A stretch of 39,408 nucleotides of DNA, from the UHGV virus genome UHGV-0070365; one strand, given 5' to 3'. Source of the stretch: a virus. Below, one piece after another: positions 1,317 through 39,408 of this stretch (within the stretch, counting starts at the first letter, position 1; each line of letters starts with the position of its first letter). The position numbers were made by a program, and so were the translations under genes. The notes under the pieces are model-generated. The model was not told where the DNA came from, searched no databases, and saw nothing but the letters and a program-made list of their open reading frames with translations.

Positions 1317-1341
1317 CGCAAAGTCTCCGCAATTACACGCA

Positions 1342-1611: not shown

Positions 1612-1911
1612 TTAATCGTCAATGTATTTTGAGCATTGTGGGCAATCATCGATCCCACAATACGATTCATATGCATCCTTTATTGCGTCGCGGGCTTCAG
1701 TAAGAGTATTGAATAAGTTGCAGCTATTATCTTTTTGATATAGGTAAGTTCCTAATTTATAAGCAGAAGAAGCATCATTTCCGCTGTCTAAAATTACATC
1801 GTTATGGATTCTGCACCTTGCAAGAACTCCTGATCCCATAAGGGTCTGCATAGCCCATTGCTCTTGATCTTCACACAAATCATGAATGCTCATTTCAACA
1901 CCTCTCTTCAC
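1612..1911 (-). CDS. Ea8.5-like Cys-rich small protein (99 aa)
   Basis: ORF with CxxC pair near C-terminus (CPQCSKYIDD); position and pattern resemble lambda Ea8.5. Confidence 0.55.
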   Translation of the reverse strand: MKRGVEMSIHDLCEDQEQWAMQTLMGSGVLARCRIHNDVILDSGNDASSAYKLGTYLYQKDNSCNLFNTLTEARDAIKDAYESYCGIDDCPQCSKYIDD

Positions 1912-2007
1912 GTTTCACACACGTTAAGATTAACAGTGTTTTTACATGCTTTGGAAGATTTATTTTATAAAAACTCTTTTAATACAAATAGATATAATAG
2001 TTCACTA

Positions 2008-2730: not shown

Positions 2731-2971
2731 TGGTTGCCTCCTGCTTTTCTGCCTTCAACACCATGCGAGAACCATCATCCAGCTCCCACACTATCTCACC
2801 ACCTTCAGCCATGACCAGTTGCCACACCAATTGAGCAGCCTCATTGGTAACATCACGACCTGGATCATTGCCAACGCGCATACGTCCACCTTCAACATCG
2901 CGCATTTTTGCCAGCATGATAGTTTTTGATAGCGGTGAAAAACCAAGCTGTAGTCGTGCGGAATTACTCAC
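2717..2971 (-). CDS. Hypothetical protein (84 aa, GTG start)
   Basis: ORF in pL operon, GTGA overlap with upstream ORF stop. Confidence 0.45.
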
Positions 2972-3135
2972 TGCTTGCCTCCTTTACGCCACATCGCATT
3001 CAGATATTTGTTTTGATTTACTGATGGAAAAGAATTTCTCTTTAGCAATTCCTCTCTCGATGGCATTGGCTTTACGCGTTGGCGAATAATCATTTCTGCC
3101 GGAAGAATGCCGGGATTGTATGCAAGTCCTCTCAT
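2968..3135 (-). CDS. Hypothetical small protein (55 aa)
   Basis: ATG overlaps stop of upstream ORF (ATGA at 3132-3135); not in supplied ORF track because <60 aa. Confidence 0.35.
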
Positions 3136-3413
3136 GATTTACTCTCCACGAACTGGTCAATAGCCATGCTAAGTGACACACCTAAAGTATCGATATGCTG
3201 CTGAATATCCTGTAGCATCTGAGCCTGAGATAACAGGATTTCACGGTTGCATAATTCTTTAACCAGATGCTCAAACTTGCTGTAATAACCGATACGGCTT
3301 AGTGTTTCTTTCCCTGCATTATCACCTTCTTTGATAATTCCTCTTTCACTAAGAATCAGGTCGTGTTTTGTTCCGGTAATAACATATTTGCCTAGGTCTA
3401 TGTTTAGCTTCAT
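3132..3413 (-). CDS. Hypothetical protein (93 aa)
   Basis: [24 protein letters not shown]... in leftward operon. Confidence 0.5.
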
Positions 3414-3429
3414 TGTTAATTACTCCATG

Positions 3430-3744
3430 TTAATTTATTCGTATGCCTGCTCTTTCTTCATCGAGTTTTTTTAGCTTGTATCTCATAGCTCTTACTGAAT
3501 AAATTGAGCGGCAGGTTGCAATTGCTATTTCTTCTGCGGAGAACTTACCGAAAAGTGATACTTCGGCTCTTGTCCAGCGTCTTCCACGAAGTCGGCTAAC
3601 AATGTCAGCGCCAATCCTTGTTGCTTTCGCCATAACTGCTTTTTCAGTCCTTTCCAGTTTTTCAGCAATAACTTCAACTGGCATTGTCGCCGATACTTCG
3701 CGCAAGAAATCGACTTCCCATTTCTCCCATGGAGTCTTTTTCAT
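3430..3744 (-). CDS. Hypothetical protein (104 aa)
   Basis: ORF MKKTPWEKWEVDFLREV... in leftward operon. Confidence 0.5.
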   Translation of the reverse strand: MKKTPWEKWEVDFLREVSATMPVEVIAEKLERTEKAVMAKATRIGADIVSRLRGRRWTRAEVSLFGKFSAEEIAIATCRSIYSVRAMRYKLKKLDEERAGIRIN

Positions 3745-3755
3745 AGGCGATACCG

Positions 3756-4244
3756 TTATTTGATAAGAAGTGAAGGTTTCCCAACCTTGAGTTGAGCGCC
3801 TGGGATATTTATTCCTGCTTTTAGTTGGTGCTTGATTGCCAACTTGTCGGCTTTAATTGTCGTTTCAAACTCAACGTATTCAGGAGGAAGGGCGCTTGAG
3901 TCGATGATTTCTACAGTTTCTGACGGTTTGCGGATTGTTACCTGGTGAATACCTGCTCGAATCTTTTTCTTGCCAACCATTTCAAGCGATGACGCTATAT
4001 ATGATTTGATGCTGTCAATCTTATTTTGAATTACTGCGGCTCGCTCATTCAGCGACTTTGCCTCTTCCTTGAGGCGTTCAGCATAACCAGATTCATTTTT
4101 AATGACGGAAAGAAGTTGCTCTATTTTATCGGTAAATTCTCCTTCCATGCCTTCTATTGTGTCAGCAATCATCTCTGGTTCTAAATCTGAATCCATCAAT
4201 TTTGCGTATTCATTGGCAATTTCATACAGTTTGCTCACTGGCAA
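3756..4244 (-). CDS. Siphovirus Gp157-like protein (162 aa)
   Basis: MPVSKLYEIANEYAKL... coiled-coil protein immediately downstream of recT, typical Gp157 family arrangement. Confidence 0.55.
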   Translation of the reverse strand: MPVSKLYEIANEYAKLMDSDLEPEMIADTIEGMEGEFTDKIEQLLSVIKNESGYAERLKEEAKSLNERAAVIQNKIDSIKSYIASSLEMVGKKKIRAGIHQVTIRKPSETVEIIDSSALPPEYVEFETTIKADKLAIKHQLKAGINIPGAQLKVGKPSLLIK

Positions 4245-5124
4245 CCTCCAGTTTCGCTTTGCATTCTATGTAAATGGCTTGTACGTTCTGCTGCAATTTC
4301 ATTCCAGATGTCAGGCGATATGCTTCTGCAAAATATCGCTTCAAATCATCCATGTTTTCTGCCTGAGCCATTTCATCACAAAGAAGTTGTGCTTTTTCCA
4401 TAATTTCCTGCTGGCGTTTCCGTTCATCTTCGCGGATATCTTCCTCTGATTTGTGCGGCATAACTGGTTCCTGATGCATGCCTTCATCTTCGTTAAGCAG
4501 GTGAATGGCATTATCCAGTCGCTGGGCTTTAGGCCAGTATTTGCTGGCGCGTTTAACTATGGTTTTACGCGCCATCTCTTCCCAGAATGTCTTCCACGGT
4601 CCATTCTTTGCCTTGCTCGTTGCTTCCACAGCTTTAATTTCTGCCAGACTCATTTCTTCAGTCAGGTAGTCACCATCTGCTGTTTTAACCGTGCAATAAC
4701 CACCAACAATAGAACCTCGCTCACCAAATGCGTTGTATTTGTGGGTTGGTGCTGAATCAAGGCCGTTTGATTCATAGGTGTCGTTTGAGTACACCAGTTT
4801 GCATTGCCCCCACTTAATTGAGCCTGTCGATTGCGCAAGGTGAAGTAATCCCATGTAACTGATATCAAGGCACACCATGCCGTCGCGAGGAACCAGATAA
4901 GCCAGTTTGCTGGCCGGGTTTAAGGTGATGCCGATCGCCGCAACATTGATGATGGCGTTCTGTGCGCTGGTTGGGTTTGCCAGTGCTGTTTTAGCCAGGT
5001 AATCATTTTTCTGGAAATACTGAATTGCAAACTGGCTTTCCTTAGCCCATGTCACCGTCTGTTCAGTCAATGCTCCGCAGAATAACTGCTCTTGCTGTTT
5101 AACGAATTCAACGATATTGCTCAT
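4222..5124 (-). CDS. recT: RecT-family single-strand annealing recombinase (300 aa)
   Basis: Family-typical motifs (…AAIGITLNP…, …KYWPK…), acidic C-terminal tail. Confidence 0.85.
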   Translation of the reverse strand: MSNIVEFVKQQEQLFCGALTEQTVTWAKESQFAIQYFQKNDYLAKTALANPTSAQNAIINVAAIGITLNPASKLAYLVPRDGMVCLDISYMGLLHLAQSTGSIKWGQCKLVYSNDTYESNGLDSAPTHKYNAFGERGSIVGGYCTVKTADGDYLTEEMSLAEIKAVEATSKAKNGPWKTFWEEMARKTIVKRASKYWPKAQRLDNAIHLLNEDEGMHQEPVMPHKSEEDIREDERKRQQEIMEKAQLLCDEMAQAENMDDLKRYFAEAYRLTSGMKLQQNVQAIYIECKAKLEVASEQTV

Positions 5125-15177: not shown

Positions 15178-15656
15178 GAGAACTAAACCTCACCAAAGAA
15201 CAGCACGAGTGGCTGAATGGCTGGCTTGAACTGTGGGGCGCATGGGTTTATTCAGGTCGTCTGGAAAAGCGTATGAGCAGCGTAATAGCGAAGTTCATGG
15301 AGAGCGTAGAGCCGGGAAGAGTTATGACAAGGCCAATGTGTAATGATGATGATGGAATGTTGATTTCTCAGGTCGTCGATTCCGTCATGTACATTGACAA
15401 GAAAGCCTTTGGCATCCTCCTCAGCTACTACGCCCACGGTTCTTCCAAGCACGCCATTGCATCTTACTATCATCGCGTCGCAAGACCTCGCAAGATGTTA
15501 TGCCGGGGCGGCGGGCGCATTCAAAAACCATCGCTCGCAACCTGTCGCCGGGAAGTTGACGAAATCCTCAATGCCTCGTTGTTTATGATTTATCCGGTTC
15601 TGGATAGTGCGTTTAAAAACCGGAAACGTGTAGAGAAAATTAAACATGTAGCATAG
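15168..15656 (+). CDS. Q: Late antiterminator Q, P22 gp23-like family (162 aa)
   Basis: …LELWGAWV… and …[20 protein letters not shown]… resemble P22 gp23 motifs; position upstream of lysis genes. Confidence 0.75.
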
Positions 15657-15659
15657 AAC

Positions 15660-15745
15660 GTGTTGACATCATTGAGCAAATGAGCAACACTATTCACATA
15701 AGCTGCCGTTAGTGACTCTTAAGTTGCAACGGTGGCTTTTTTTGT
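15660..15745 (+). promoter_or_regulatory. Candidate late promoter pR'/qut with short-transcript terminator (TTGACA at 15666-15671; ...GCAACGGTGGCTTTTTTT)
   Basis: -35-like hexamer immediately after Q and T-run about 60 nt downstream. Confidence 0.4.
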
Positions 15746-16574
15746 TTGCACAACAGGTAAGAGCATTCTCCTTTATGGGGCTTGGCTTAAATGCACCGAG
15801 TGCTCTTATCGTTGTGGCAGCACAACGATAGTTTTCGTCAGAGTTGGCGACTTTGCGGGTTTTTAGAAACTGACCACAAAGATAAATGCAAACGATGATT
15901 TGATGTTGATGGCGGCCTAAGAAACCAAAATCACGGGGTCTTCCGACTCCCCGCTACCAAATTCGGCGCACTGGCCCGGTGTGATTAATAATGGGCACCC
16001 ATTCAAATGTACCCTCGGCAGGTTCGATTCCTGACTAGACCCAGATGGCGACGGGGAGGGTCCAATTGAGTGGGTAACAACGGGCATGTCGCCTTAGTAA
16101 ATCCCTCAAGGGTGCGACGCATAGACCGGTACTAGCGTCGCCGTTAGCTCCACGAAACGGAGCGCACAACAGGTAAGAGTATTTGTAGAGTTCGACTCTC
16201 TACCGTGGGCTTTTTCCCGCGATGCGAGCCATAAATGCTCTTTCCGTTGTGCTGAATTAAGCGAATGCCGGAAGCAGAACCGGATCACCAAATGCGTACA
16301 GGCGTCATCGCCGCCCAGCAACAGCACAACCCAAACTGAGCCGTAGCCACTGGCTATCCTGAATTCATCAGTGATAGTTACGCTGCGGCCTTCTACACAT
16401 GATCTTCGTGAAAGCGGGTGGCAAGAGGCTGCGCTAACAACCCCCTGCCGTTTTGCCCGTGCATATCGGTCACGAACAAATCTGATTACTAAACACAGTA
16501 GCCTGGATTTGTTCTATCAGTAATCGACCTTATTCCTAATTAAATAGAGCAAATCCCCTTATTGGGGGTAAGAC

Positions 16575-16898
16575 ATGAAGATGCCAGAAAAACATGACCT
16601 GTTAGCCGCCATTCTCGCGGCAAAGGAACAAGGCATCGGGGCAATCCTTGCGTTTGCAATGGCGTACCTTCGCGGCAGATATAATGGCGGTGCGTTTACA
16701 AAAACAGTAATCGACGCAACGATGTGCGCCATTATCGCCTGGTTCATTCGTGACCTTCTCGACTTCGCCGGACTAAGTAGCAATCTCGCTTATATAACGA
16801 GCGTGTTCATCGGCTACATAGGTACTGACTCGATTGGTTCGCTTATCAAACGCTTCGCTGCTAAAAAAGCCGGAGTAGAAGATGGTGGAAATCAATAA
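16575..16898 (+). CDS. S: Holin S (class I, dual start MKM; 107 aa)
   Basis: [67 protein letters not shown]...; lambda S-like. Confidence 0.95.
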
Positions 16899-19207: not shown

Positions 19208-19630
19208 ATGGCGACTGAACCAAAAGCTGGTCGCCCCTCTGATTATATGCCGGAGGTGGCTGACGATATCTGCTCGTTGCTTTCTTCTGGCGAAAGTTTG
19301 CTGAAAGTATGTAAGCGTCCTGGTATGCCGGATAAGTCCACTGTTTTCCGCTGGTTGGCAAAGCATGAGGATTTTCGCGACAAGTACGCGAAGGCAACTG
19401 AGGCACGAGCTGATTCTATTTTCGAAGAGATATTCGAAATTGCTGACACTGCGATTCCAGATGCTGCTGAGGTGGCAAAGGCAAGACTTCGCGTTGATAC
19501 CCGCAAATGGGCGCTGGCCCGAATGAATCCACGTAAGTATGGCGACAAGGTAACTAACGAGCTTGTCGGCAAAGACGGCGGCGCAATCCAGATTGAAACA
19601 TCACCGATGAGCACTCTATTTGGAAAATGA
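19208..19630 (+). CDS. Terminase small subunit, Sf6 gp1-like (140 aa)
   Basis: MATEPKAGRPSDYMPEVADDICSLLSSGESLLKVCKRPGMPDKSTVFRWL... HTH-containing TerS. Confidence 0.9.
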   Translation: MATEPKAGRPSDYMPEVADDICSLLSSGESLLKVCKRPGMPDKSTVFRWLAKHEDFRDKYAKATEARADSIFEEIFEIADTAIPDAAEVAKARLRVDTRKWALARMNPRKYGDKVTNELVGKDGGAIQIETSPMSTLFGK

Positions 19631-21039
19631 CCTCGATTAATCCTATCTTTGAACCGTTCATTGAGGCGCATCGCTACAAAGTCGCCAAAGGCGGTCGAGG
19701 TAGCGGTAAATCATGGGCAATTGCGAGGCTGCTTGTTGAAGCGGCGCGCCGGCAGCCTGTGCGTATTCTCTGCGCTCGTGAACTGCAAAACAGTATCAGC
19801 GATTCGGTAATCCGGTTGCTTGAAGACACCATAGAGCGGGAAGGGTATTCGGCTGAGTTTGAAATTCAGCGTTCCATGATTCGTCATCTCGGAACGAATG
19901 CTGAATTCATGTTCTACGGCATAAAAAACAACCCGACGAAGATTAAATCGCTCGAAGGCATTGATATCTGCTGGGTTGAAGAAGCGGAAGCGGTAACGAA
20001 GGAATCGTGGGATATCCTGATTCCAACCATCCGTAAGCCGTTCTCTGAAATATGGGTAAGTTTCAACCCGAAAAACATCCTCGACGATACCTATCAGCGA
20101 TTCGTCGTAAATCCTCCTGATGATATTTGCCTGCTGACAGTGAACTACACCGACAACCCGCACTTTCCTGAAGTTCTCCGTCTGGAGATGGAAGAGTGCA
20201 AACGCAGAAATCCGACACTATATCGTCACATCTGGCTTGGTGAGCCAGTAAGCGCAAGTGATATGGCAATCATCAAACGTGAATGGCTTGAAGCTGCTAC
20301 CGATGCGCACAAGAAACTCGGATGGAAAGCGAAAGGCGCTGTTGTCTCTGCGCATGACCCGTCAGATACAGGGCCAGATGCTAAAGGTTATGCATCGCGT
20401 CACGGTTCGGTGGTTAAGCGCATTGCCGAAGGTCTGCTGATGGACATCAACGAGGGTGCTGACTGGGCTACTTCGCTGGCGATTGAAGACGGCGCTGACC
20501 ATTACCTGTGGGATGGTGATGGTGTTGGTGCCGGGCTACGCAGACAGACAACGGAAGCGTTCTCCGGCAAGAAAATCACCGCTACGATGTTCAAGGGCAG
20601 CGAATCGCCATTTGATGAAGATGCACCATATCAGGCCGGAGCATGGGCTGATGAAGTCGTGCAGGGCGACAACGTTCGCACTATTGGCGATGTATTCCGC
20701 AATAAGCGAGCGCAATTCTATTACGCGCTAGCTGACAGGCTGTATCTGACATATCGGGCGGTTGTCCACGGTGAGTATGCAGACCCCGACGACATGCTGA
20801 GTTTCGACAAAGAAGCGATAGGCGAGAAGATGCTGGAGAAGCTGTTTGCAGAACTGACGCAGATTCAGCGCAAATTCAATAATAACGGGAAGCTGGAGCT
20901 TATGACTAAGGTCGAAATGAAGCAGAAGCTCGGTATTCCATCTCCTAACCTGGCTGATGCGCTGATGATGTGTATGCATTGCCCGGCATTGGTCCGCGAA
21001 GAAACAGAAATATACGTTCCCTCATCCTCCGGTTGGTAA
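19627..21039 (+). CDS. Terminase large subunit (470 aa)
   Basis: Walker A GGRGSGKS, nuclease domain; Sf6 gp2-like. Confidence 0.95.
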   Translation: MTSINPIFEPFIEAHRYKVAKGGRGSGKSWAIARLLVEAARRQPVRILCARELQNSISDSVIRLLEDTIEREGYSAEFEIQRSMIRHLGTNAEFMFYGIKNNPTKIKSLEGIDICWVEEAEAVTKESWDILIPTIRKPFSEIWVSFNPKNILDDTYQRFVVNPPDDICLLTVNYTDNPHFPEVLRLEMEECKRRNPTLYRHIWLGEPVSASDMAIIKREWLEAATDAHKKLGWKAKGAVVSAHDPSDTGPDAKGYASRHGSVVKRIAEGLLMDINEGADWATSLAIEDGADHYLWDGDGVGAGLRRQTTEAFSGKKITATMFKGSESPFDEDAPYQAGAWADEVVQGDNVRTIGDVFRNKRAQFYYALADRLYLTYRAVVHGEYADPDDMLSFDKEAIGEKMLEKLFAELTQIQRKFNNNGKLELMTKVEMKQKLGIPSPNLADALMMCMHCPALVREETEIYVPSSSGW

Positions 21040-21041
21040 AC

Positions 21042-22847
21042 ATGGCAGAGACATTAGAGAAAAAACATGAGCGGATCATGCTCAGGTTTGACCGCGCCTA
21101 TTCTCCACAGAAGGAAGTGCGCGAAAAGTGCATTGAAGCTACGAGGTTTGCTCGTGTCCCCGGAGGTCAATGGGAAGGAGCAACGGCGGCTGGAACTAAG
21201 CTTGATGAGCAGTTCGAGAAGTATCCTAAGTTTGAAATCAATAAGGTAGCAACTGAACTTAACCGCATCATTGCAGAATACCGCAATAACAGAATAACCG
21301 TTAAGTTTCGTCCTGGTGACAGAGAGGCAAGCGAAGAGTTAGCCAATAAATTAAATGGTCTGTTCCGTGCTGACTACGAAGAAACTGATGGCGGTGAGGC
21401 TTGCGATAATGCATTTGACGACGCTGCTACTGGTGGTTTCGGTTGCTTCCGTTTGACGTCGATGCTGGTCAATGAATACGACCCCATGGACGATCGTCAG
21501 CGTATTGCTATTGAACCAATATACGACCCGTCGCGCTCTGTGTGGTTTGACCCTGACGCTAAGAAGTACGACAAATCTGACGCGTTGTGGGCGTTCTGTA
21601 TGTATTCGTTGTCACCTGAAAAATATGAGGCTGAATACGGAAAGAAACCTCCTACTTCTCTGGATGTAACGTCTATGACCAGTTGGGAATATAACTGGTT
21701 TGGTGCAGATGTTATTTACATAGCGAAGTATTACGAAGTTCGTAAAGAGTCTGTTGACGTCATCAGTTATCGACATCCAATCACTGGAGAGATTGCAACA
21801 TACGACAGTGATCAGGTTGAAGATATTGAAGATGAACTGGCAATAGCTGGATTTCATGAAGTGGCAAGGCGCTCAGTGAAGCGCCGTCGTGTGTATGTAT
21901 CCGTAGTGGATGGTGATGGTTTCCTTGAGAAACCTCGACGTATTCCTGGTGAGCATATCCCCCTCATCCCGGTTTATGGAAAACGCTGGTTCATTGATGA
22001 CATTGAGCGTGTCGAAGGGCACATTGCAAAAGCAATGGATCCACAGCGTTTGTACAACCTTCAGGTTTCAATGCTGGCTGATACTGCAGCGCAAGACCCC
22101 GGTCAGATTCCTATAGTTGGCATGGAGCAAATTCGTGGACTTGAGAAGCACTGGGAGGCTCGCAACAAGAAACGCCCAGCGTTCTTGCCGTTGCGCGAAG
22201 TGAGAGATAAATCTGGCAACATTATCGCTGGAGCTACCCCGGCAGGATATACACAGCCTGCGGTTATGAATCAGGCATTGGCTGCATTACTACAGCAAAC
22301 CAGTGCAGATATTCAGGAGGTTACAGGCGGCAGTCAGGCCATGCAGCAGATGCCAAGTAATATTGCTCAGGAAACGGTTAACAACTTGATGAACAGAGCA
22401 GATATGGCTTCGTTTATCTATCTGGACAATATGGCGAAAAGTCTTAAACGAGCTGGTGAAGTATGGCTGTCAATGGCTCGTGAAGTGTACGGTTCAGAGC
22501 GTGAAGTGCGCATCGTTAACGAAGATGGAAGTGATGATATCGCTGTCCTGAGCGCACAGGTTGTTGACAGGCAAACAGGGGCTGTTGTTGCGTTAAATGA
22601 CCTTTCTGTCGGTCGATACGATGTGACGGTTGATGTTGGACCAAGCTACACAGCACGACGTGATGCAACGGTTTCTGTACTGACAAATGTCCTTAGCTCT
22701 ATGCTTCCAACAGACCCAATGCGTCCGGCAATTCAGGGTATTATTCTGGACAATATCGATGGCGAAGGCCTTGATGACTTCAAAGAGTACAACCGAAACC
22801 AACTGCTGATATCTGGCATTGCAAAACCACGCAATGAGAAAGAGTAG
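21042..22847 (+). CDS. Portal protein core (601 aa) ending at in-frame TAG
   Basis: MAETLEKKHERIMLRFDRAYSPQ...; P22/Sf6-type portal; frame continues after TAG at 22845-22847. Confidence 0.9.
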   Translation: MAETLEKKHERIMLRFDRAYSPQKEVREKCIEATRFARVPGGQWEGATAAGTKLDEQFEKYPKFEINKVATELNRIIAEYRNNRITVKFRPGDREASEELANKLNGLFRADYEETDGGEACDNAFDDAATGGFGCFRLTSMLVNEYDPMDDRQRIAIEPIYDPSRSVWFDPDAKKYDKSDALWAFCMYSLSPEKYEAEYGKKPPTSLDVTSMTSWEYNWFGADVIYIAKYYEVRKESVDVISYRHPITGEIATYDSDQVEDIEDELAIAGFHEVARRSVKRRRVYVSVVDGDGFLEKPRRIPGEHIPLIPVYGKRWFIDDIERVEGHIAKAMDPQRLYNLQVSMLADTAAQDPGQIPIVGMEQIRGLEKHWEARNKKRPAFLPLREVRDKSGNIIAGATPAGYTQPAVMNQALAALLQQTSADIQEVTGGSQAMQQMPSNIAQETVNNLMNRADMASFIYLDNMAKSLKRAGEVWLSMAREVYGSEREVRIVNEDGSDDIAVLSAQVVDRQTGAVVALNDLSVGRYDVTVDVGPSYTARRDATVSVLTNVLSSMLPTDPMRPAIQGIILDNIDGEGLDDFKEYNRNQLLISGIAKPRNEKE

Positions 22848-23168
22848 CAGATTGTTCAACAGGCGCAAATGGCAGCACAAAGCCAGCCAAATCCTGAAAT
22901 GGTTCTCGCTCAGGCGCAAATGGTAGCAGCGCAGGCAGAAGCGCAAAAAGCAACTAACGAAACTGCTCAAACTCAAATCAAAGCATTTACTGCCCAGCAG
23001 GATGCGATGGAGAGTCAGGCAAACACTGTCTATAAACTGGCTCAAGCCAGAAACATCGATGACAAAGCAGTGATGGAGGCAATACGCCTTCTGAAAGATG
23101 TCGCCGAGTCACAACAACAGCAATTCCAGTCACCACCACAGTCTCCGGCAGACTTAATGCCGAGTTAA
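22848..23168 (+). other. In-frame continuation of portal reading frame (C-terminal Gln/Ala-rich helical barrel region, 106 codons) separated from core by a single amber codon
   Basis: 22848 is in frame with 21042; sequence QIVQQAQMAAQSQPNPEMVLAQAQMVAAQAEAQK... resembles portal barrel. Confidence 0.6.
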
Positions 23169-23181: not shown

Positions 23182-24066
23182 ATGGAAAACGAACTGATCA
23201 TCGACGGTCAGGTTATTGGCCTGTCTGAAACACAGGAAAATGCAGAAGAAACCATCATCCAAACAGAGTCACAGCCTGAGAATGAAAGCCAGGATGACAA
23301 CGGTAAAGAGGTGGCAACTGAGCCTGAAAAAACCGAAGAGACACCAGAAGATTACGCCTTGCGTATTGGTGATGAAGAAATTCAGCTTAACGCTGACGAT
23401 GATGATCACATTGACGGGAAACCTGCACCGCAATGGGTGAAAGATCTTCGCAAAGGCTTCAAAGAAACACAGAAAGAAAACCGTGAGTTGCGCCGCCAGC
23501 TTGAGGAAGCATTAGCCAAGCCTGCGGAACATCAGCAACCACAACCAGACGCTATTCCACCAAAACCGACTCTTGAGTCGTGTGATTATGACGAACAGGC
23601 GTTTGAACAGGCATTGACTGATTGGCATGAGAAAAAAGGCCGTGTCGAACAGCAGCAGCAACAAAAACTACGTCAGCAACAGGAATACCAACAGCGTTTC
23701 CAGCAAAGGGTAGAAGCGCATAAACAACGGGCAGCCAAACTTCCTGTGAAAGATTATCAGGAAATGGAGGCCATTGTTCTTAGTGAGCTACCACCAATTC
23801 AGCAGGAAATCATCATTCACTGTGCAGACGAAGGCTCTGAACTACTCGCCTATGGCTTAGGTAAGAGCCAGCAATTACGCCAGCGTGTAGCCGCTGAGAC
23901 AGATCCAATTCGCGCAGCATTCCTCTTGGGGCAGATTAGCAAACAGGTAAGCCTTGCTCCAAAACCAAAGAAAGCCATCAAGCCAGAGCCGGAAGTACGT
24001 GGTGGCGGTGCTGATGCGAAACAAGACGAATTCAACAAATTATGCCCCGGCGCAAAAATCGAATAA
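23182..24066 (+). CDS. Scaffolding protein (294 aa)
   Basis: Acidic, Gln-rich coiled-coil protein between portal and coat. Confidence 0.85.
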   Translation: MENELIIDGQVIGLSETQENAEETIIQTESQPENESQDDNGKEVATEPEKTEETPEDYALRIGDEEIQLNADDDDHIDGKPAPQWVKDLRKGFKETQKENRELRRQLEEALAKPAEHQQPQPDAIPPKPTLESCDYDEQAFEQALTDWHEKKGRVEQQQQQKLRQQQEYQQRFQQRVEAHKQRAAKLPVKDYQEMEAIVLSELPPIQQEIIIHCADEGSELLAYGLGKSQQLRQRVAAETDPIRAAFLLGQISKQVSLAPKPKKAIKPEPEVRGGGADAKQDEFNKLCPGAKIE

Positions 24067-24077: not shown

Positions 24078-25349
24078 ATGCCTAACAATCTCGACAGTAA
24101 CGTCAGTCAAATCGTTCTGAAAAAATTCCTTCCTGGTTTTATGTCAGATTTAGTTCTGGCGAAAACCGTAGACCGTCAGTTGCTGGCAGGTGAAATCAAC
24201 TCCAGCACTGGCGATAGCGTTAGCTTTAAACGTCCGCATCAATTCTCATCCCTCCGTACTCCCACTGGTGATATTTCGGGGCAAAATAAAAACAACCTGA
24301 TCTCAGGTAAAGCTACGGGGCGTGTAGGTAACTACATCACTGTTGCTGTTGAATATCAGCAACTGGAGGAAGCGATCAAGCTTAACCAACTGGAAGAAAT
24401 TCTCGCGCCGGTTCGCCAGCGAATCGTTACCGACCTTGAAACAGAGCTTGCTCACTTCATGATGAATAACGGTGCGTTGTCACTTGGTAGCCCCAATACT
24501 CCAATCACCAAATGGTCTGATGTTGCGCAGACGGCATCTTTCCTGAAAGACCTCGGCGTTAATGAAGGTGAAAACTATGCTGTAATGGATCCATGGTCTG
24601 CACAGCGACTTGCTGATGCGCAGACTGGTTTGCACGCTTCAGATCAATTGGTTCGTACTGCATGGGAGAATGCGCAGATTCCAACCAATTTTGGCGGCAT
24701 TCGCGCACTGATGTCTAATGGGCTTGCCTCTCGTACGCAGGGGGCATTTGGCGGAACACTGACAGTCAAAACACAGCCAACTGTTACCTATAACGCAGTT
24801 AAAGACTCATACCAGTTCACTGTAACATTGACCGGAGCGACAGCCAGCGTTACAGGTTTTCTGAAAGCTGGTGATCAGGTTAAATTCACCAATACCTACT
24901 GGCTGCAACAGCAGACCAAACAGGCGTTGTATAACGGAGCCACACCAATTAGCTTCACTGCAACGGTTACTGCTGATGCTAATTCAGACAGCAGTGGCGA
25001 TGTGACGGTTACGCTTTCTGGTGTTCCGATTTATGACACTACAAACCCGCAGTACAACTCTGTAAGTCGTCAGGTAGCGGCAGGCGATGCCGTATCTGTA
25101 GTAGGCACTGCTAGCCAGACAATGAAGCCAAACCTGTTCTATAACAAGTTCTTCTGTGGACTTGGCTCTATCCCACTGCCGAAACTGCACAGTATTGATT
25201 CTGCTGTTGCAACATATGAAGGTTTCTCCATCCGCGTACATAAATACGCAGATGGCGATGCCAACGTGCAAAAAATGCGCTTTGACTTACTGCCTGCATA
25301 TGTGTGCTTTAACCCTCACATGGGCGGTCAGTTCTTCGGTAATCCGTAA
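24078..25349 (+). CDS. Major capsid (coat) protein, P22/Sf6-like (423 aa)
   Basis: MPNNLDSNVSQIVLKKFLPGFMSDLVLAKTVDRQLLAGEINSSTGDSVSFKRP... Confidence 0.93.
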   Translation: MPNNLDSNVSQIVLKKFLPGFMSDLVLAKTVDRQLLAGEINSSTGDSVSFKRPHQFSSLRTPTGDISGQNKNNLISGKATGRVGNYITVAVEYQQLEEAIKLNQLEEILAPVRQRIVTDLETELAHFMMNNGALSLGSPNTPITKWSDVAQTASFLKDLGVNEGENYAVMDPWSAQRLADAQTGLHASDQLVRTAWENAQIPTNFGGIRALMSNGLASRTQGAFGGTLTVKTQPTVTYNAVKDSYQFTVTLTGATASVTGFLKAGDQVKFTNTYWLQQQTKQALYNGATPISFTATVTADANSDSSGDVTVTLSGVPIYDTTNPQYNSVSRQVAAGDAVSVVGTASQTMKPNLFYNKFFCGLGSIPLPKLHSIDSAVATYEGFSIRVHKYADGDANVQKMRFDLLPAYVCFNPHMGGQFFGNP

Positions 25350-32737: not shown

Positions 32738-33127
32738 CTAACATTTTCTTTTTACTTTTCCAACAAAAGCTTTGGTTGAATCCATATTTCCATAACCGGA
32801 AATGGTTTTTGACATTAAAACTGTTCCAGTAGGATGTATTACCCATGAGTCGATAACGCGTTGAGTTTCGCCATTCGCGCCGATTCCTATGATGGAGTTT
32901 TTAGACAATGCTTTGTAAGCCATGCCGCCCGCATCTGTCCCAGAATATGTGATGCTGGCATCTTCACCGCTTGTCTTAATGATGAATGTTCCACTAAAAC
33001 CATCTTCTTCCGGATGGAAATTATTTCGTTCTGAATAGCTTATTCCGCGCATATCTCCAACGACCCAGCACTCTGCTGTAGCCCCAAAAGATATGAATAA
33101 GAACATAGCAGCAAGAAATTGCTTCAC
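32738..33127 (-). CDS. Secreted/periplasmic protein of unknown function (129 aa, GTG start), paralog of rex-position protein
   Basis: SD TAAGGAGGT upstream of GTG; signal peptide (M)KQFLAAMFLFISFGATA; mature N-terminus ECWVV like ECWIV of 7358-7762 product. Confidence 0.6.
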   Translation of the reverse strand: MKQFLAAMFLFISFGATAECWVVGDMRGISYSERNNFHPEEDGFSGTFIIKTSGEDASITYSGTDAGGMAYKALSKNSIIGIGANGETQRVIDSWVIHPTGTVLMSKTISGYGNMDSTKAFVGKVKRKC

Positions 33128-33191
33128 ACCAACCTCCTTAGTTTTGAGCAGAATACCAGATGATAATGTGTAGTTGGAGTAGCGCGGTTGT

Positions 33192-33283
33192 AATGCAAGC
33201 ATTTTGTTTTAGTTTTATGCTTGCTTGTATGTGTGTACAGTGTATATAATGCAAGCATACATCACAACAAAGGTGCTTGCATT
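33192..33283. promoter_or_regulatory. Divergent promoter region with four copies of TGCAAGCA/TGCTTGCA palindromic motif (33192-33203, 33217-33227, 33248-33259, 33273-33284) and TATAAT at 33245-33250
   Basis: Repeated imperfect 12-bp palindromes AATGC-NN-GCATT spaced about 24-32 bp. Confidence 0.5.
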
Positions 33284-34252
33284 ATGACTGAAAAGAAAAG
33301 TGGCGAAGGGAAAGCTAAGGGCGGGATCGCTCGCGCAAAGTCGCTGACTAAAGAGCAGCGTTCTGAAATAGCAAAGAAAGCAGCTGCTGCAAGATGGAAA
33401 AGTAAGATTCTCAGGGCAACTCATCGTGGTAACTTTTTAGATGATTTTGGCATTGATGCTGAATGTTATGTACTGGATGACGAGTCGAAAACTGTCGTTG
33501 TTACGAAAACTGGATTATCTCAGTTGCTAGGGATTGGTGAACATGCCAGGGATTTAGATCAACTGCTTGGCGCTCAGTATATGAGCAAATACCGAGATCT
33601 AGAATTGCAGCGAAAAATGGAAAATCCCTATAAATTTCAACTTACTTCGAAGTCTAAAACCGTTCATCAAGCGTTAGGTTATGACATTACAGCAATTGTT
33701 GATATTGGTAGGGCACTAATAGAAGCCAAAGATAATGACGATCTACCACAATCACGGTTAAAGGCAGCCGCCGCAGCACAGAGACTTATTAATGCCTCCG
33801 CTAAGGCGGGAATTAAGGGGGTTGCGTATGCGCTTGCTGGTTATCGTCCAGAAGTTCAGGCTGTCATTGACGAGTTCAAAGCGTTTGTTCGTGAAGAGGC
33901 TCGTCAATATGAAAAGGAATTTCCAGATGAGCTATACGAGGAGTGGTATCGACTGTACGGCCTGAATAGGCCAGAGAAAGGACGGCCTATTCGTTTTGGG
34001 CAGCTAACCAACATGCAGATATACACCCCGCTAGCAAAGAGTAAAGGTAAAATCCTTGAACAAATTAGAGCCAGCCGAGACGAGAACGGAAAACAATCTG
34101 ATAAGTTGCATCTGTTCCTTTCTGAAATTGGTGTCAAGGCTTTGCGTCAGCATATCGGTAAGCTTCTTGGTGTCGCAGCGATGAGTGAGACAAGAGAAGA
34201 ATACGAAAAAGGAATAGAAAAGGTTTTCGGAAGAATGAAACCAGAAATCTAA
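33284..34252 (+). CDS. Uncharacterised protein with basic putative DNA-binding N-terminus (322 aa)
   Basis: N-terminal KGGIARAKSLTKEQRSEIAKKAAAARWKS; no TM segments; lies in sieA/immI position. Confidence 0.55.
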   Translation: MTEKKSGEGKAKGGIARAKSLTKEQRSEIAKKAAAARWKSKILRATHRGNFLDDFGIDAECYVLDDESKTVVVTKTGLSQLLGIGEHARDLDQLLGAQYMSKYRDLELQRKMENPYKFQLTSKSKTVHQALGYDITAIVDIGRALIEAKDNDDLPQSRLKAAAAAQRLINASAKAGIKGVAYALAGYRPEVQAVIDEFKAFVREEARQYEKEFPDELYEEWYRLYGLNRPEKGRPIRFGQLTNMQIYTPLAKSKGKILEQIRASRDENGKQSDKLHLFLSEIGVKALRQHIGKLLGVAAMSETREEYEKGIEKVFGRMKPEI

Positions 34253-34260
34253 TTATGAAA

Positions 34261-34282
34261 CCCACCGTCAGGTGGGTTTTTT
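34261..34282. terminator. Bidirectional terminator hairpin (CCCACC-GTCA-GGTGGG then T6) shared by convergent genes
   Basis: Perfect 6-bp stem; mnt stop codon lies in loop. Confidence 0.7.
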
Positions 34283-34519
34283 GTACAAATCCTTCAGCGT
34301 ATCAAACACCATCTTCTTAACAAGTTCAGACTGCTCATCAGCGATGCGTTCCGCATCGTCTCGATAGCCTGAAATTTTGGATGGCTTTGATACAGCATCA
34401 GTCACTATCTGAACTAATTCTGAATTAAGAGAGCGGCCATTGGATTTGGCTCGCTGTTTTAGTTTTTCCTTTAATTCGTAAGGTAGCCGCAGATTAAATT
34501 GCGGGTCATCTCTTCCCAT
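34268..34519 (-). CDS. mnt: Mnt repressor, ribbon-helix-helix (83 aa)
   Basis: MGRDDPQFNLRLPYELKEKLKQRAKSNGRSLNSELVQIV...YRDDAERIADEQSELVKKMVFDTLKDLYKKPT, P22 Mnt-like. Confidence 0.85.
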   Translation of the reverse strand: MGRDDPQFNLRLPYELKEKLKQRAKSNGRSLNSELVQIVTDAVSKPSKISGYRDDAERIADEQSELVKKMVFDTLKDLYKKPT

Positions 34520-34582
34520 TCTTGATGCCTCACTTTTGTAAGTGGATCGGCATCATATGATCTACTGGTTATATCCACAATA

Positions 34583-34597
34583 AGACCACTGTGGTCT
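34583..34597. promoter_or_regulatory. Omnt: Mnt operator-like perfect palindrome AGACCAC-T-GTGGTCT
   Basis: 15-bp palindrome between mnt and tailspike start. Confidence 0.6.
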
Positions 34598-34654
34598 CAA
34601 TGACGCATTGCCGTAGCCATGCTGCGGTGATTCCTTGTATCTGGAGCAAATTAA

Positions 34655-36634
34655 ATGACAGACATTACAGCCAATGTGATCGTATCAATGCCATCGCAAC
34701 TCTTCACTATGGCGCGTTCTTTTAAAGCCGTAGCCAATGGCAAAATTTATATCGGAAAAATTGACACTGACCCGGTAAATCCTGAAAACCAGATTCAGGT
34801 TTATGTGGAGAACGAAGACGGTTCTCACGTCCCTGTTTCGCAACCAATCATCATTAACGCTGCTGGATATCCGGTATATAACGGACAGATTGCCAAGTTC
34901 GTAACTGTGCAAGGCCATTCTATGGCTGTTTATGATGCATACGGTGCTCAGCAGTTTTATTTTCCGAATGTTCTGAAGTACGATCCTGACAGATTGCGAC
35001 AGGATTTAGCGCTTCCAACAGGCGCTGAGCTTGTAGGCGTGCAACCACAAGGAAATCTTTCGCAAGTCATTCAGTTTGTATCTCCAGAGCAGTTTGGCGC
35101 CATCGGAGATGGTACGGTTCATCCATTATCTGAGCGTTATGCGACTCTTGCAGCAGCGCAGGCAGTATACCCATTCGTAACATCTCTGACGCAGACCATC
35201 GACTGGGCTGCATGCCAGTTGGCAGAAAACCTTAACAGGAAGGTTAGGCCCATTCATGTTGCCAAGTTTAAAAAATATCACCTTGGTGACAACTATCTCA
35301 AGTTGGGCCCATATTCTACATGGATTGCCCTACCGTTAAATGACTTCGTATGGGATACAGGATTTATCCGCAGCGTACCTACAGATTATTCCTCATACGC
35401 ATTTGGGCAGTTGTGCATTGTTAGAGTCGGTGACGCGTCAGAATTTACTGGTGATGGCGTTACCGGAAGCAATGTGCGAAATATTACCTTTAAGGGGTTT
35501 CAGCTTAGATGGGATGTGGCCAGACACACTCCTTCTAAGGGCGTTGGGACCATCTGCCTGCATATGAATAATGCCATGAAGATGAATCTTGATGTTTGCC
35601 TTTATGGCGGTGAGTTCGCTGCTTTCGGGTACTCATGCTGGGGCACTCAGGGTAGTATAAAAATAGACTCATGCCATAAGGGGATATATTGGGATGCCGT
35701 GAGTAAAACCCCGGAAAAATCCACAGAGGGAGGCAGCACAACGTCGCATAATATTGAATTACAAATCGACCATACGATTTTCCCTGTCTACCTTAGAAAT
35801 TGTAACTACGCTAAATTCCACGGCTGGTTCGAAGGAGCCTTGACGTCGATGGCTCACTATGATTACACAAACGAGACTGCAATGGGCATTACCCTTGATT
35901 CGTGTGACGGGGTAATTTTTGATATGGGAGTAGAGGCGTGGCAAGGAGCTTTACTGAATTGCATAGGTTCCGTTGAGGCTGAGTTTTCTTTTGCGATGCT
36001 TCCTAGTGAGATTCTACCATCGGGACTAGGTACGCAGGGGGTTGCGTATCGCGTAAGGTCGTTAATGTCTGCAACTGATGAGACGGCGATACCTAACGCT
36101 GATAGAAGTCTGTCTTATGTTAACGGATACAGCACCGTAACGATTAAGCACTGGCAGCCCGTTGTGAATCCATGGCCGACAGATGGAACAACGAAATATG
36201 TTACATCTGTTGACACAACAAGCAAAGTGACCTTCCAGGATTGCGGAGTAAACTTAGGCGGCGCTCCTGCACTCGGCGGCGGTGATGCTAGACTCAAGCT
36301 AGCACCAGCTAACTACGCTAATATAGAGGCTATAGGCGGGATGTACATAGAGCGCTATTTAAAGCCAAGCTCCTCATACGATTATGCAGGGAGATCTGTA
36401 TCTGTGCATAATTCGTGGCAGGGAGCTAAGATTGCTGCTGATGGCACTGTTACCATAACAGCTCCAGCAAACTTTAAAATAGTCGATTTTACGGCTATGG
36501 TAGGTGTCAGCACAAATGCTCAGCCATCCGGAGTTGGAATAAAATCCAGAAGCGATGCGTCTATAGTCCTACAAACTACAGCTAACGCGTCCTATGGTAT
36601 TAACTATAAATTGTGGGTTAAGCCAACATTGTAA
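34655..36634 (+). CDS. Tailspike protein: P22/Sf6-type N-terminal head-binding domain plus divergent receptor-binding domain (659 aa)
   Basis: N-terminus [59 protein letters not shown] matches P22 gp9 head-binding domain; remainder dissimilar. Confidence 0.85.
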
Positions 36635-36649
36635 AGGCCCTTACGGGCC

Positions 36650-38080
36650 TTATTTAAGCATTACATGAAAATGGTTGCCTGAGTGGATTATGAAGTAACG
36701 GCTATCCTTAAATACAGTAGTGTCGTTATTATTTTTCATTGATTCCATCTCTGCAAAAATTCCATAATGTTTCAGCATTATCATTCCTGACCAGTTATAC
36801 AAAGGCATTACCATCCACTTAAGGGAAGGGAATCTCTTAAATTCCATGTCAGTAGAGACGGCGGTAGATATCTGGCCAGAGATAAACACCTTTTTGCCAT
36901 CCAGTTTAGGTGGCAACGAAGATGCTATATCATAGAACACCTTATCTTCGAGCGAGCGCTGATGCTTACTTGCATTTCCATATGCAGACGAGTAAGACAA
37001 GGAGAACATTACAGGAATAATGCATGCGATAGTTGTTAGTCTTTTTGATGGCAACATTGATGCCAGATAGCCGATAAGCAGCATAAACCCCGGAACTCCC
37101 ATCATTACGCGAGGAGCAACCACAGTCTTATCTATAAATATAAATGGCCCAGCAATTGAGAACAGTGTCACTGCAATGCCCGAAGAAAACACAGCAAAAC
37201 CAATAATTTTTGATGTTAAAGAAAGCTCAGACTTTGCCACTCTGAAAGACAGAATTATCAAGCCAACAGTCGCAACTACAATAATCAGTACCCAAGCCAT
37301 GTAAAGCGAGTCATTCATGAGGCTTGATGCGATATTCCAGAATCTTTCAAAGTTGTAAAGCAGGCTTTTAGCCGGATCATCAGCTTTTAATACAAGATCT
37401 GAGTGAACATTCTTCGACAAGAAGAATGGGGTCACACCCTTCATGTAGATTATAATCCCAATAATTGCGCTGGCCGCTCTTTCGGCAGACATTCGCAATG
37501 CATCTGTTCCGCTTCCCCTACTGTAAAGTACGTAAGCTATTTCTATGGCGCACAAAGATAGGAACACATTTATTGTTGCTTGATAGAGACTCAAGGCAAG
37601 CACAAGGCATACAGCCCCAAATAGCACCCTAAACGCCAACTTCCATGATGCTGCCATTTTAGAGTAAGGTAAAACGGCAAGGAAAACTCCAAGCATCATG
37701 GGGAGGGAGTCAAAGTGATAAGAAAGATTTTGAAGGAAGAAAGGGCTTAATGAAAATAAAGAAAAAACTAATCCTGAAGCAATGCCGCGACTGATTGCAA
37801 ACCTGCAATAAAGAATGACTGACGAAGCACCAAGGAATGTGCCGGCAAGTATCAGTGATAATGGGAAAGAATCGACAACAAATCCAGATCCAAACCCAAG
37901 TGACATGACAACAACATCAGATAAAGGTCGGCCAAGCACGCCCCAATACGCTTCACCATTCGCAGCCCTAAGTATATCATCCTGATATAGAACGCCTGAA
38001 AGCAGGATTGGCAACACAAAGAGTGCTGTAATCAAGGAAATTACCCAACACCCGCTATCAAATTTATTCAACTTCAACAT
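36650..38080 (-). CDS. Serotype-specific O-antigen glucosyltransferase (GtrC-type, polytopic membrane protein, 476 aa)
   Basis: Multi-TM protein directly downstream of gtrB in a gtrA-gtrB-gtrX operon. Confidence 0.7.
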
Positions 38081-38999
38081 TTTTATTCCTTTGTTTTAGA
38101 ATAAATCTCGGGCGCTGCTTGGACTCAACATATATCCTGCCAATGTACTCACCAAGAACGCCAATGCCAATCAATTGAACCCCGCCAAGGAACAGAATAG
38201 AGACAAGCAGGGATGGATATCCACGTACAGCATTGCCGAAGGCCAGTGTGTCGATAATCATCCAAGCACCGTACAGAAACGCCACTCCAGCTACGAACAG
38301 GCCAATGTAAGTCCACATGCGCAACGGGAAAGTAGAGAAGCTTGTGATTCCCTCAAGTGCCAGGTTCCACAGTTTCCATCCATTAAATTTAGTACTGCCT
38401 GCCACTCGTTCTGCGCGTGCATACTCGACAACATCAGTGCGGCCGCCAACCCAACTCAGCACACCTTTCATAAAAAGGTTGCGCTCTGGCATAAGCTTAA
38501 TGTTTTCGACAACTTCACGGCTCATTAACCGGAAATCGCCGACATTCTCCTCGATCTTTGGGTTGCTTATTTTGTTGTGCAATTTATAAAACCACTCTGC
38601 CGTTTTGCGTTTCAGTCGTCCGTCAGTTGAGCGATCAGTTCGCTTAGCCAGCACCATATCAGAGCCTGCCTGCCACTTTTCGATGAGGTGGGGAATAACC
38701 TCAATCGGATCTTGCAGGTCAACATCAATTGGAATTACAGCATCTCCGGTTGCATGGTCTAGCCCTGCAAACAATGCTGGTTCTTTACCAAAGTTTCGTG
38801 TAAATGACAGCGGAACAACCAGCGGGTCTGAAACAGCCAGAGCATTAATAATTGACTCCGTAGCGTCTTTGCTTCCGTCATTTATGAAAACAATTTCCAC
38901 TTCATATGGCTTCAACTCTTTGAACTCACGTACCGTTTTATAAAAAATTGGTATCGCTTCTTCTTCATTGAAGACAGGAACTACAAGAGATATCTTCAT
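38064..38999 (-). CDS. gtrB: Bactoprenol glucosyltransferase GtrB (311 aa)
   Basis: GT2 family motifs (VVPVFNEEE, DxD), C-terminal TM helices. Confidence 0.9.
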
Positions 39000-39358
39000 T
39001 TCGCATCCCTAAAGACAATGAACTTTGAATAGACGAAACCGCACACCAGGCTGATGGCGGAGAAGGTGACGAGAGTGACAATTGGAGGAAGTGAACATCT
39101 ATCAGCAGCCCATCCAACAGTTGCACTCAGTGTTCCCATGAACCCGACATATAACATGTAGCGCATCGTTGTAGTTGATGCTTTGAATGTGAATTTTGCA
39201 TTCGCGAAGAAGCTAAAACTCACAGCCACAACAAAACCTGCGAAGTTTGCCAGAGCCTGATTGGTATGCGCGGCATAGATACATACACCAAAAACCACCC
39301 AGTGTATAAGGGTGTTCAGCACGCCAATAGAGGTGTACTTTGCAAATAGTTTTAACAT
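38996..39358 (-). CDS. gtrA: GtrA flippase (120 aa)
   Basis: [59 protein letters not shown]...; 4-TM GtrA family. Confidence 0.9.
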
Positions 39359-39408
39359 TTCTTCTATCAGCTAATAATCAAAGGCATGAAGTCTATCATC
39401 CAAGTCTC

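Follow-up and report, generated by a model that had tools for sequence, protein, structure and literature searches.

One question is raised by the portal gene of this prophage, and it concerns a single codon. In the window (the whole 39,408-nucleotide stretch of virus genome UHGV-0070365 that was analysed), the portal frame meets an in-frame TAG and then continues in the same frame to a natural stop. An earlier note, made from the sequence alone, had left three explanations standing: that the prophage makes a portal lacking its C-terminal barrel and is defective or attenuated, that the host suppresses amber codons, or that the stop is a sequencing error. Here we weigh these explanations, together with programmed readthrough and a dispensable barrel, and assign a probability of about 0.75 to a recent, clonal nonsense mutation (CAG>TAG, Gln602>amber) in an Sf6 gp3-type portal gene, leaving a barrel-less portal and a prophage that is probably defective or attenuated.

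A single amber codon interrupts an Sf6-type portal gene

Retranslation of positions 21042–23168 (+) gave 601 sense codons, TAG at codon 602, 106 further sense codons in frame and TAA at 23166–23168, in agreement with the reading frame described in the earlier note. An open run of 107 codons after the stop has a chance probability of approximately 0.006, but at the sequence level it is homology to Sf6 gp3, rather than this probability, that is the decisive evidence for an interrupted portal. With Gln restored at position 602 the product is 708 aa long and 100% identical to Sf6 gp3 (PDB 7SFS chain M), which bears out the note's description of an Sf6-like portal with a P22-type barrel. The portal matches Pfam PF16510 (P22_portal) with 555.2 bits against a cut-off of 26.1, over residues 14–600 and profile positions 2–557 of 594, and the gene is placed as the P22-like family expects, with the large terminase ending at 21039, the portal beginning at 21042, the scaffold at 23182 and the coat at 24078. 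A 625-aa GTG-start open reading frame (ORF) at 20970–22847 was considered as the real extent of the portal gene and its start rejected, as the ATG at 21042 lies 2 nt past the terminase stop and fits both Sf6 and the RefSeq annotation. Public gene callers start the portal at Met13 (21078), giving a 589-aa product.

The amber codon costs the portal 107 of its 708 residues (15%), so that the predicted product measures 601 aa and 67.8 kDa against 79.5 kDa for the intact protein. The truncated ORF encodes the wing, stem, clip and crown and the first two residues of the barrel. In the Sf6 portal structure the barrel is modelled as residues 600–671, and residues 672–708 are disordered (PMC9728967). 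Because the stop lies at codon 602, the whole barrel and the disordered tail are lost from the portal polypeptide; the note was thus accurate in placing the stop before the C-terminal barrel. The barrel coding sequence persists downstream of the TAG, and the protein that it encodes is still 100% identical to Sf6 gp3, indicating no decay since the mutation. Coordinates are collected in Table 1.

Table 1. Features of the portal region in the window
Feature	Position	Strand	Description
Small terminase	19208–19630	+	Intact; 99.3% protein identity to Sf6, full length, 0 stops
Large terminase	19627–21039	+	Intact; 100% protein identity to Sf6, full length, 0 stops
Truncated portal ORF	21042–22847	+	Sf6 gp3-type codons 1–601, closed by the amber codon
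Amber codon TAG, codon 602	22845–22847	+	C>T transition at 22845; ancestral CAG (Gln)
Orphaned 3′ portal part	22848–23168	+	Codons 603–708 (barrel helix to 671, then disordered tail) and natural TAA
99-aa ORF	22869–23168	+	Met610–Ser708, 10.8 kDa; annotated as a separate gene in amber-allele assemblies
Scaffolding	23182–24066	+	Intact; 99.3% protein identity to Sf6, full length, 0 stops
Coat	24078–25349	+	Intact; 99.5% protein identity to Sf6, full length, 0 stops

The prophage is a mosaic Sf6/HK620-like (Lederbergvirus-type) element integrated at the lambda attachment site in an Escherichia coli lineage. Full-length alignments without stops were obtained for both terminase subunits, scaffold, coat, gp6, adaptor, hub, needle, gp14-like and gp7-like genes; for the mosaic gp20-like, gp16-like and tailspike genes the alignment to the references is partial, yet they are complete ORFs of 468, 613 and 659 aa. 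The note's statement that the terminase, coat and tail genes are intact therefore stands, and the remaining virion, lysis and immunity genes, where a comparison was possible, are likewise intact.

The allele is shared by independent assemblies

A sequencing or assembly error, with C as the true base at 22845, would account for a lone base difference in an otherwise perfectly conserved gene. It would also fit two empty searches: a 35-mer exact-pattern scan for the TAG allele found no match in GTDB representative genomes, IMG/VR or JGI metagenome contigs, and a first look-up of the 601-aa product returned nothing. The look-up was empty, however, because gene callers start at Met13 rather than Met1. 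The exact 589-aa product is encoded on approximately 12 contigs from ENA and Logan, the split-portal contigs (589 aa plus 99 aa) having been found by a look-up via the neighbouring gp20-like protein. As some samples may have been assembled twice (ENA and Logan), independent isolates number fewer than 12; at least one SRA-submitted run and the ENA-submitted records are distinct among the carriers. Contigs from two archives and projects, L111/L116 (ENA ERZ27239488) and L117 (SRA SRR4194479, Logan assembly), match the window at 100.000% identity for 19.9, 21.8 and 15.4 kb, TAG included. The site has no homopolymer, and no Dcm (CCWGG) or Dam (GATC) site lies near 22845, which makes a systematic error unlikely and led us to reject an artefact of deamination or of a methylation motif. 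The error option of the earlier note is thus refuted by independent assemblies, and we now give a true C at this position very little credence.

The allele sits within a prophage integrated in the chromosome, on a 172-kb contig from an ENA metagenome-style assembly, and recurs in several further assemblies, and the window as a whole has no match among phage records; on these grounds we judged a laboratory amber stock an unlikely source. The 99-aa ORF is recorded on 32 contigs, including NCBI DAW95546.1, 'MAG TPA: portal protein [Caudoviricetes sp.]'.

The C>T change is derived and probably recent and clonal

Comparison with intact Sf6-like portals, a check proposed in the earlier note, traced the stop to a single C>T change. 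Exactly one base, that at 22845, distinguishes the gene from the portal gene of the E. coli MS 198-1 prophage. All 80 close relatives among IMG/VR viral contigs carry CAG at codon 602 and have no internal stops, and the more distant intact relatives have a sense codon there (CAG, GAG/GAA, GCC or AAG). This stretch is present in 227 complete E. coli genomes, none of them with the TAG allele. Relative to the Sf6 portal gene there are 13 other DNA differences, all synonymous because the proteins are otherwise identical.

Three sister copies of the prophage (L112, L113 and L114) carry CAG and differ from the window at 3–5 positions per approximately 20 kb; in L114 an IS1 lies within the portal gene. 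In E. coli EC2 and SW07163 an internal deletion has removed window positions ~4441–34151 (~29.7 kb), with IS1 annotated at the junction in EC2. The copies in L114, EC2 and SW07163 occupy the same site, between bioA-ybhB and ybhC, and are at least 99.9% identical to the window. EC2, SW07163, SW071611 and SW071619 match the host flank of the TAG contig at 100% identity. No differences separate the TAG copies examined, and wherever a copy extends into the host flank the chromosomal site is the same, which fits vertical inheritance rather than spread as a phage. On this sequence evidence the best reading is that TAG is a derived nonsense allele, recently arisen and clonally inherited.

Suppression and programmed readthrough are disfavoured

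Next, we considered whether the amber codon is read as sense. Since the ancestral codon is CAG, a supE-type suppressor tRNA inserting Gln would regenerate the exact wild-type portal and leave the prophage fully functional in its own host. The base 3′ of the TAG is C, a context in which UAG terminates relatively weakly in E. coli. Several observations nevertheless disfavour the host suppression that the earlier note had offered. ARAGORN found no tRNA gene in the window, which eliminates a suppressor tRNA encoded by the phage, although tRNA-Asn and tRNA-Thr are present in Sf6. Six other genes of the window, among them the adaptor and Q genes, end normally at TAG, on which basis an alternative genetic code was also rejected. 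Of 5,424 complete E. coli genomes, 155 have a supE-type tRNA-Gln(CUA), and the 40 of these that were listed are all K-12 laboratory derivatives. The note had also suggested searching the host for a supE-type suppressor. EC2, a probable host relative with the same prophage lineage and a host flank identical to that of the TAG contig, has only wild-type tRNA-Gln genes (two CTG and two TTG); this test covered supE, with EC2 as a proxy for the TAG-carrying strains. Host suppression of the amber codon is thus unlikely, and a supE-type host in which the prophage is fully functional is a long shot.

The same weak context, and the continuation of the frame past the stop, could be taken to mean that the TAG is an evolved regulatory feature, programmed readthrough or a reassigned code yielding two portal isoforms. 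This we regard as negligible: the stop is present in none of the 80 close relatives and in none of the more distant intact ones, the sister prophages carry CAG, and TAG is an ordinary terminator elsewhere in the window.

Proposed consequences of the truncation

With error refuted and suppression disfavoured, the barrel-less portal is the option of the earlier note that is left, and its 'defective or attenuated' outcome draws on analogy with P22. In a non-suppressing host, translation would end after Glu601, and the 67.8-kDa portal would keep the wing, stem, clip and crown and would be without the C-terminal helical barrel and the disordered tail. The P22 'portal-602' core forms rings and has been crystallised with gp4 (PMC5290284), and by analogy the truncated portal would probably be incorporated into procapsids and allow packaging. 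The last-packaged DNA and the ejection proteins are proposed to be held in the barrel, with which the ejection proteins are associated (PMC4992974; bioRxiv 10.64898/2026.09.03.749273); for this reason virions produced on induction would probably be defective, or strongly attenuated, at keeping or delivering the genome. Since Q-antiterminated polymerase transcribes the late operon, little polarity is expected on the late genes downstream. The lesion would be neutral to a lysogen and would therefore spread vertically with the host.

The allele could instead be a tolerated polymorphism or a naturally split portal, if the truncated product, alone or together with the 99-aa fragment made by reinitiation, still gave infectious or transducing particles. 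The P22 1–602 core forms rings and binds its partners, and the last 50 residues of P22 gp1, alone, are documented as dispensable (PMC4992974), which is why we word the defect as probable. The barrel also evolves approximately three times faster than the core (pN/pS 0.34 versus 0.12) and is therefore less constrained; the allele is found in approximately 12 assemblies; and an in-frame ATG follows the stop by 21 nt at the head of an undecayed ORF. Against this, the barrel is kept, fused to the portal, in all intact relatives (704–742 aa) across six genera, with dN of ~0.17 and dS above 2, and by this comparison it is under purifying selection. Supply in trans meets further objections. The isolated P22 barrel is monomeric and only partly helical (PMC5290284) and the inter-helix interface of the Sf6 barrel is weak (PMC9728967), which makes assembly of an unanchored fragment unlikely. 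Met610 also has a poor Shine-Dalgarno match, whose anti-Shine-Dalgarno duplex of −2.5 kcal/mol is weaker than those at all eight genuine late-gene starts tested (−3.3 to −7.6 kcal/mol). Finally, the identity of the TAG copies and their single chromosomal site, where the flank is reached, fit vertical inheritance. We therefore hold a tolerated or split portal to be doubtful, and slightly more doubtful still that a portal ending at residue 601, possibly aided by the 99-aa fragment, could give Sf6-type virions that assemble, keep their DNA and infect. In the accessible literature we found no in vivo test of a complete portal barrel deletion, and a search on natural amber suppressors or nonsense mutations in prophage portals returned nothing useful.

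Discussion

The closest known system is Sf6, whose gp3 (PDB 7SFS/7SP4/7SPU; NP_958179.1) is identical to the portal described here at the 707 other positions and is encoded in the same gene order, TerS-TerL-portal-scaffold-coat. It differs in having CAG rather than TAG at codon 602, so that residues beyond the base of the barrel are translated as part of the Sf6 portal but not here. The rest of the genome is a different mosaic: its Int is lambda-type, gtrABC takes the place of oac, and the tailspike body and the gp20-like and gp16-like genes differ from those of Sf6. For what the natural truncated product could still do, the best model, by analogy, is the 'portal-602' or delta-123 core of P22 (PDB 3LJ4, 5JJ1, 4V4K), a barrel-less portal of the same family, although P22 gp1 is a distant homologue of the Sf6 portal (<22% identity; PMC9728967). 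That construct was engineered in vitro, whereas the present allele is natural, and in the alignment the natural stop falls at P22 Q590, so that the construct extends 12 residues further. The P22 core assembles into dodecameric rings and binds both gp4 and terminase. P22 dif1, in which gp1 lacks residues 676–725, is likewise a C-terminal truncation of a P22-family portal; it is viable and shows that the distal portal tail is dispensable (PMC4992974). However, the coiled-coil barrel is still present in dif1, which lacks no more than 50 distal and probably disordered residues, whereas here the loss extends from the barrel base onwards.

The lesion is the same CAG>TAG change as in classical amber (sus/am) mutants, such as P22 gene 1 ambers grown on supE hosts, and a Gln suppressor would repair it exactly. 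Unlike those laboratory stocks, this allele occurs in natural assemblies (a large metagenome-assembled contig and an NCBI 'MAG TPA' entry), and no supE-type suppressor was found in EC2, the probable host relative tested.

The nonsense allele looks like an ordinary early step of prophage decay rather than a new mechanism. As in other decaying E. coli prophages, the lesion falls in a virion gene and spares the genes for immunity, integration and lysogenic conversion, and the same lineage has stages with an IS1 insertion and a large deletion. It differs from them in that a single lesion was detected and the other compared genes are intact, which would make this the earliest recognisable stage of decay, with a loss of function that we infer. 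The amber codon would then represent an early point-mutation stage, and the IS1 in the portal gene and the internal deletion of ~30 kb (IS1-flanked in EC2) would be later stages in the same lineage.

For those who annotate such elements, the split portal in public records (589 or 601 aa plus 99 aa, including the NCBI 'MAG TPA' entry) is a true allele and not an error, and prophage-completeness tools would score the element as intact despite its truncated portal. One E. coli lineage thus holds the same att-lambda prophage in four states, with an intact portal, an amber portal, an IS1-disrupted portal and a large internal deletion. This series offers clean, dated material for the study of prophage decay, and is a natural experiment of modest value. 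Sister lysogens with TAG and with CAG provide near-isogenic material for the in vivo role of the P22/Sf6 portal barrel, and if virions with the truncated portal did prove infectious, they would show from a natural allele that retaining the genome and delivering the ejection proteins do not require the barrel, or require it only in trans.

Portal gene and the amber codon

Translation of the portal frame gave 601 sense codons, an in-frame TAG and a further 106 sense codons before TAA, exactly where the earlier note had placed an amber-interrupted portal; the computed chance of an open run that long past a stop is about 0.006. Beyond such frame statistics, homology settled the assignment. Once codon 602 is read as Gln, the 708-aa translation matches the portal gp3 of phage Sf6, a solved structure (PDB 7SFS chain M), at 100% identity, and P22 gp1 aligns with it end to end (E = 6e-95). 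The gene is one base away from its counterpart in a prophage of E. coli MS 198-1, whose annotation shows an intact portal (WP_000852330.1): C>T at 22845, which converts CAG to TAG. It differs from the Sf6 portal gene at 14 bases; since the two proteins match everywhere outside codon 602, the 13 changes besides the amber are synonymous. Judged by sequence, this is the gene for Sf6 gp3 carrying the allele Q602am.

In the Sf6 tail-machine structure, the helices of the barrel, the C-terminal helical part of P22/Sf6-type portals, are modelled at residues 600–671, and residues 672–708 are disordered (PMC9728967). A stop at 602 is therefore predicted to remove essentially the whole barrel and tail, lowering the computed mass from 79.5 to 67.8 kDa. 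The wing, stem, clip and crown all remain in the truncated portal, with Pfam PF16510 over residues 14–600. The stop aligns with P22 Q590, 12 residues short of the end of portal-602, the much-used engineered P22 portal core that lacks the barrel. What marks the barrel-bearing subgroup of the portal family is that the barrel belongs to the portal polypeptide itself, a feature lost here solely through the stop.

Reality and origin of the stop

A sequencing error, one reading offered in the earlier note, is effectively excluded, because two assemblies that match the window at 100.000% identity carry the same TAG: ENA ERZ27239488, on a 172.8-kb contig (over 19.9–21.8 kb), and the Logan assembly of SRR4194479 (over 15.4 kb). 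On the ERZ27239488 contig the portal was called as 589 aa plus 99 aa, the same split as in the window, the gene caller having started at Met13. ENA and Logan together hold about 12 contigs with the 589-aa product (the longest among the 8 contigs listed has 251,486 bp, equal to the length of the ERZ1741982 contig), and the 99-aa ORF is on 32, including NCBI DAW95546.1 ('MAG TPA: portal protein [Caudoviricetes sp.]').

Exact-pattern scans for the TAG allele gave no match in GTDB representative genomes, IMG/VR or JGI metagenome contigs, nor in any of the 227 complete E. coli genomes holding this 71-nt stretch, and the 601-aa product was absent from protein records. A private allele, which the negative scans would suggest, is contradicted by the split-portal contigs, reached through neighbouring proteins.

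CAG stood at codon 602 in each of 80 close IMG/VR relatives, none of which had an internal stop, and distant intact relatives (Atlantibacter, Yokenella, Erwinia, Proteus, Arsenophonus, Yersinia) had Lys, Glu or Ala. Because relatives all carry a sense codon there, the amber is, by this comparison, a derived state and not a conserved feature, which also excludes programmed readthrough. Arsenophonus endosymbiont genomes (L012 and L015–L018) hold P22-type portal homologues in several pieces or with many stops (9 in L016), a decay far more advanced than the single lesion in the window portal.

Suppression by the host, a further reading in the earlier note, would restore the portal but is unlikely. 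The window contains no tRNA genes, and six of its other genes end in TAG as their ordinary stop. An exact supE-type tRNA-Gln(CUA) was found in 155 of 5,424 complete E. coli RefSeq genomes, and among the matches listed 40 of 40 were K-12 laboratory derivatives. The host check covered supE in a proxy for the TAG strains, their probable relative E. coli EC2, whose four tRNA-Gln genes, located by synteny in the metT-leuW-glnU-glnW-metU-glnV-glnX cluster, have the wild-type anticodons TTG, TTG, CTG and CTG, with no CUA. Reinitiation could occur at an in-frame ATG after the stop (Met610), but the Shine-Dalgarno sequence there is a poorer match than at any of the eight genuine late-gene starts tested, and barrel helices on their own do not assemble (PMC5290284; PMC9728967). 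The supE-type genomes listed include C600, DH5alpha, DH1 and J53, and some are labelled with the host 'Homo sapiens' or 'mouse gut'.

Expected consequence of barrel loss

Because P22 portal-602 forms dodecameric rings, which were crystallised with gp4 (PMC5290284), the truncated portal should still support procapsid nucleation and packaging. The barrel encloses the last-packaged DNA, associates with ejection proteins and collapses after their departure (PMC9728967; PMC4992974; bioRxiv 10.64898/2026.09.03.749273); in P22, dispensability is documented for the last 50 residues only (PMC4992974). Every intact relative compared has kept the barrel (portals of 704–742 aa). Its pN/pS is 0.34 versus 0.12 for the core, and in genus-level comparisons its dN is about 0.17 versus a dS above 2, values that indicate purifying selection weaker than that on the core. 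Given this role, conservation and selection, and the narrow dispensability in P22, virions would be expected to be defective or attenuated, whereas in the lysogen the lesion would be neutral and inherited vertically. We found no in vivo test of complete barrel deletion in the accessible literature. Among the readings in the earlier note, the evidence favours a barrel-less portal in a probably defective or attenuated prophage: the stop is real and suppression unlikely, and the virion defect would follow from loss of the barrel.

Sister prophages and prophage layout

Near-identical sister prophages with CAG at codon 602 are present in Logan ERR3797137 (a contig in 9 samples), Logan ERR3328828 and ENA ERZ27269245, separated from the window by 3–5 differences in about 20 kb; in the ERZ27269245 sister (contig L114), IS1 lies inside the portal gene. 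EC2, a urinary tract isolate from Australia, and the wastewater strain SW07163 hold the prophage ends only (window 1–4441 and 34151–39408; 99.9–99.98% identity), the deletion having left gtrABC, the tailspike, mnt/arc and the int-xis end. At the EC2 junction IS1 is annotated between P63C and recombinase genes, both truncated. Over 7.2 kb, the host sequence beside the TAG prophage matches EC2, SW07163, SW071611 and SW071619 at 100% identity, which places in one E. coli lineage, on sequence evidence, a complete succession of decay stages: an intact prophage, the amber portal, a portal interrupted by IS1, and the large deletion. At tailspike codon 226, a nonsynonymous SNP gives Leu in the window versus Pro in all four sister copies, which are CAG-linked where codon 602 was read. 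The contigs bearing this exact tailspike protein, 12 in number, have the same size distribution as the 12 with the truncated portal. L226 thus seems to mark the TAG clade and appears linked to the amber allele.

Features of the prophage and its relatives (window coordinates unless a contig is named)
Feature	Location	Strand	Remarks
Lambda-type integrase, 356 aa	left end, 1–1120 region		Pfam Arm-DNA-bind_1 and Phage_integrase
Deletion in EC2 and SW07163	~4441–34151		about 29.7 kb
Interval between Q antiterminator and holin genes	15656–16575		919 bp; no ORF ≥90 aa, no tRNA gene
Portal frame	21042–23168	+	
Amber codon	22845–22847	+	codon 602
In-frame ATG	22869	+	Met610
Portal TAA	23166–23168	+	
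154-aa ORF	32738–33202	−	between gp16-like ejection gene and P63C-domain (antirepressor-like) gene
Tailspike codon 226	35331		
gtrA/gtrB/gtrC	right end, 36650–39408 region		O-antigen glucosylation
Insertion site	e.g. L101 14342–21980		between ybhB/bioA and ybhC
Decayed copies of the same lineage	L114 1–1585; L107/L118 NZ_CP058571.1 3583414–3593781; L106		≥99.9% identity

The window is a precisely cut prophage, and its left end presumably resembles the P' arm of lambda attP; the insertion site in public contigs is the lambda attachment site. The virion module is Sf6-type (98–100% protein identity, TerS through gp7-like), and the gp20-like and gp16-like genes, tailspike body and early regions are mosaic. 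Portal excepted, all comparable virion, lysis and immunity genes are full length with 0 stops, bearing out the earlier claim of intact terminase, coat and tail genes. The combination of a P22/Sf6-type virion with lambda integration and gtr conversion modules is a notable mosaic. The 154-aa ORF has no Pfam match, occupies a typical moron position and is cut to 129 aa in some sisters (L102, L113), beside the window/L113 alignment break at 33202/33247. Sf6 has tRNA-Asn and tRNA-Thr at the place equivalent to the Q–holin interval, whereas the window lacks them.

Together, these results describe ordinary prophage decay by point mutation and no new kind of system; the allele is of the same kind as a classical laboratory amber mutant but comes from natural assemblies. 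The split portal annotation reflects a true allele, prophage-completeness tools would overrate this prophage, and TAG and CAG lysogens, being near-isogenic, could serve directly in tests of barrel function.
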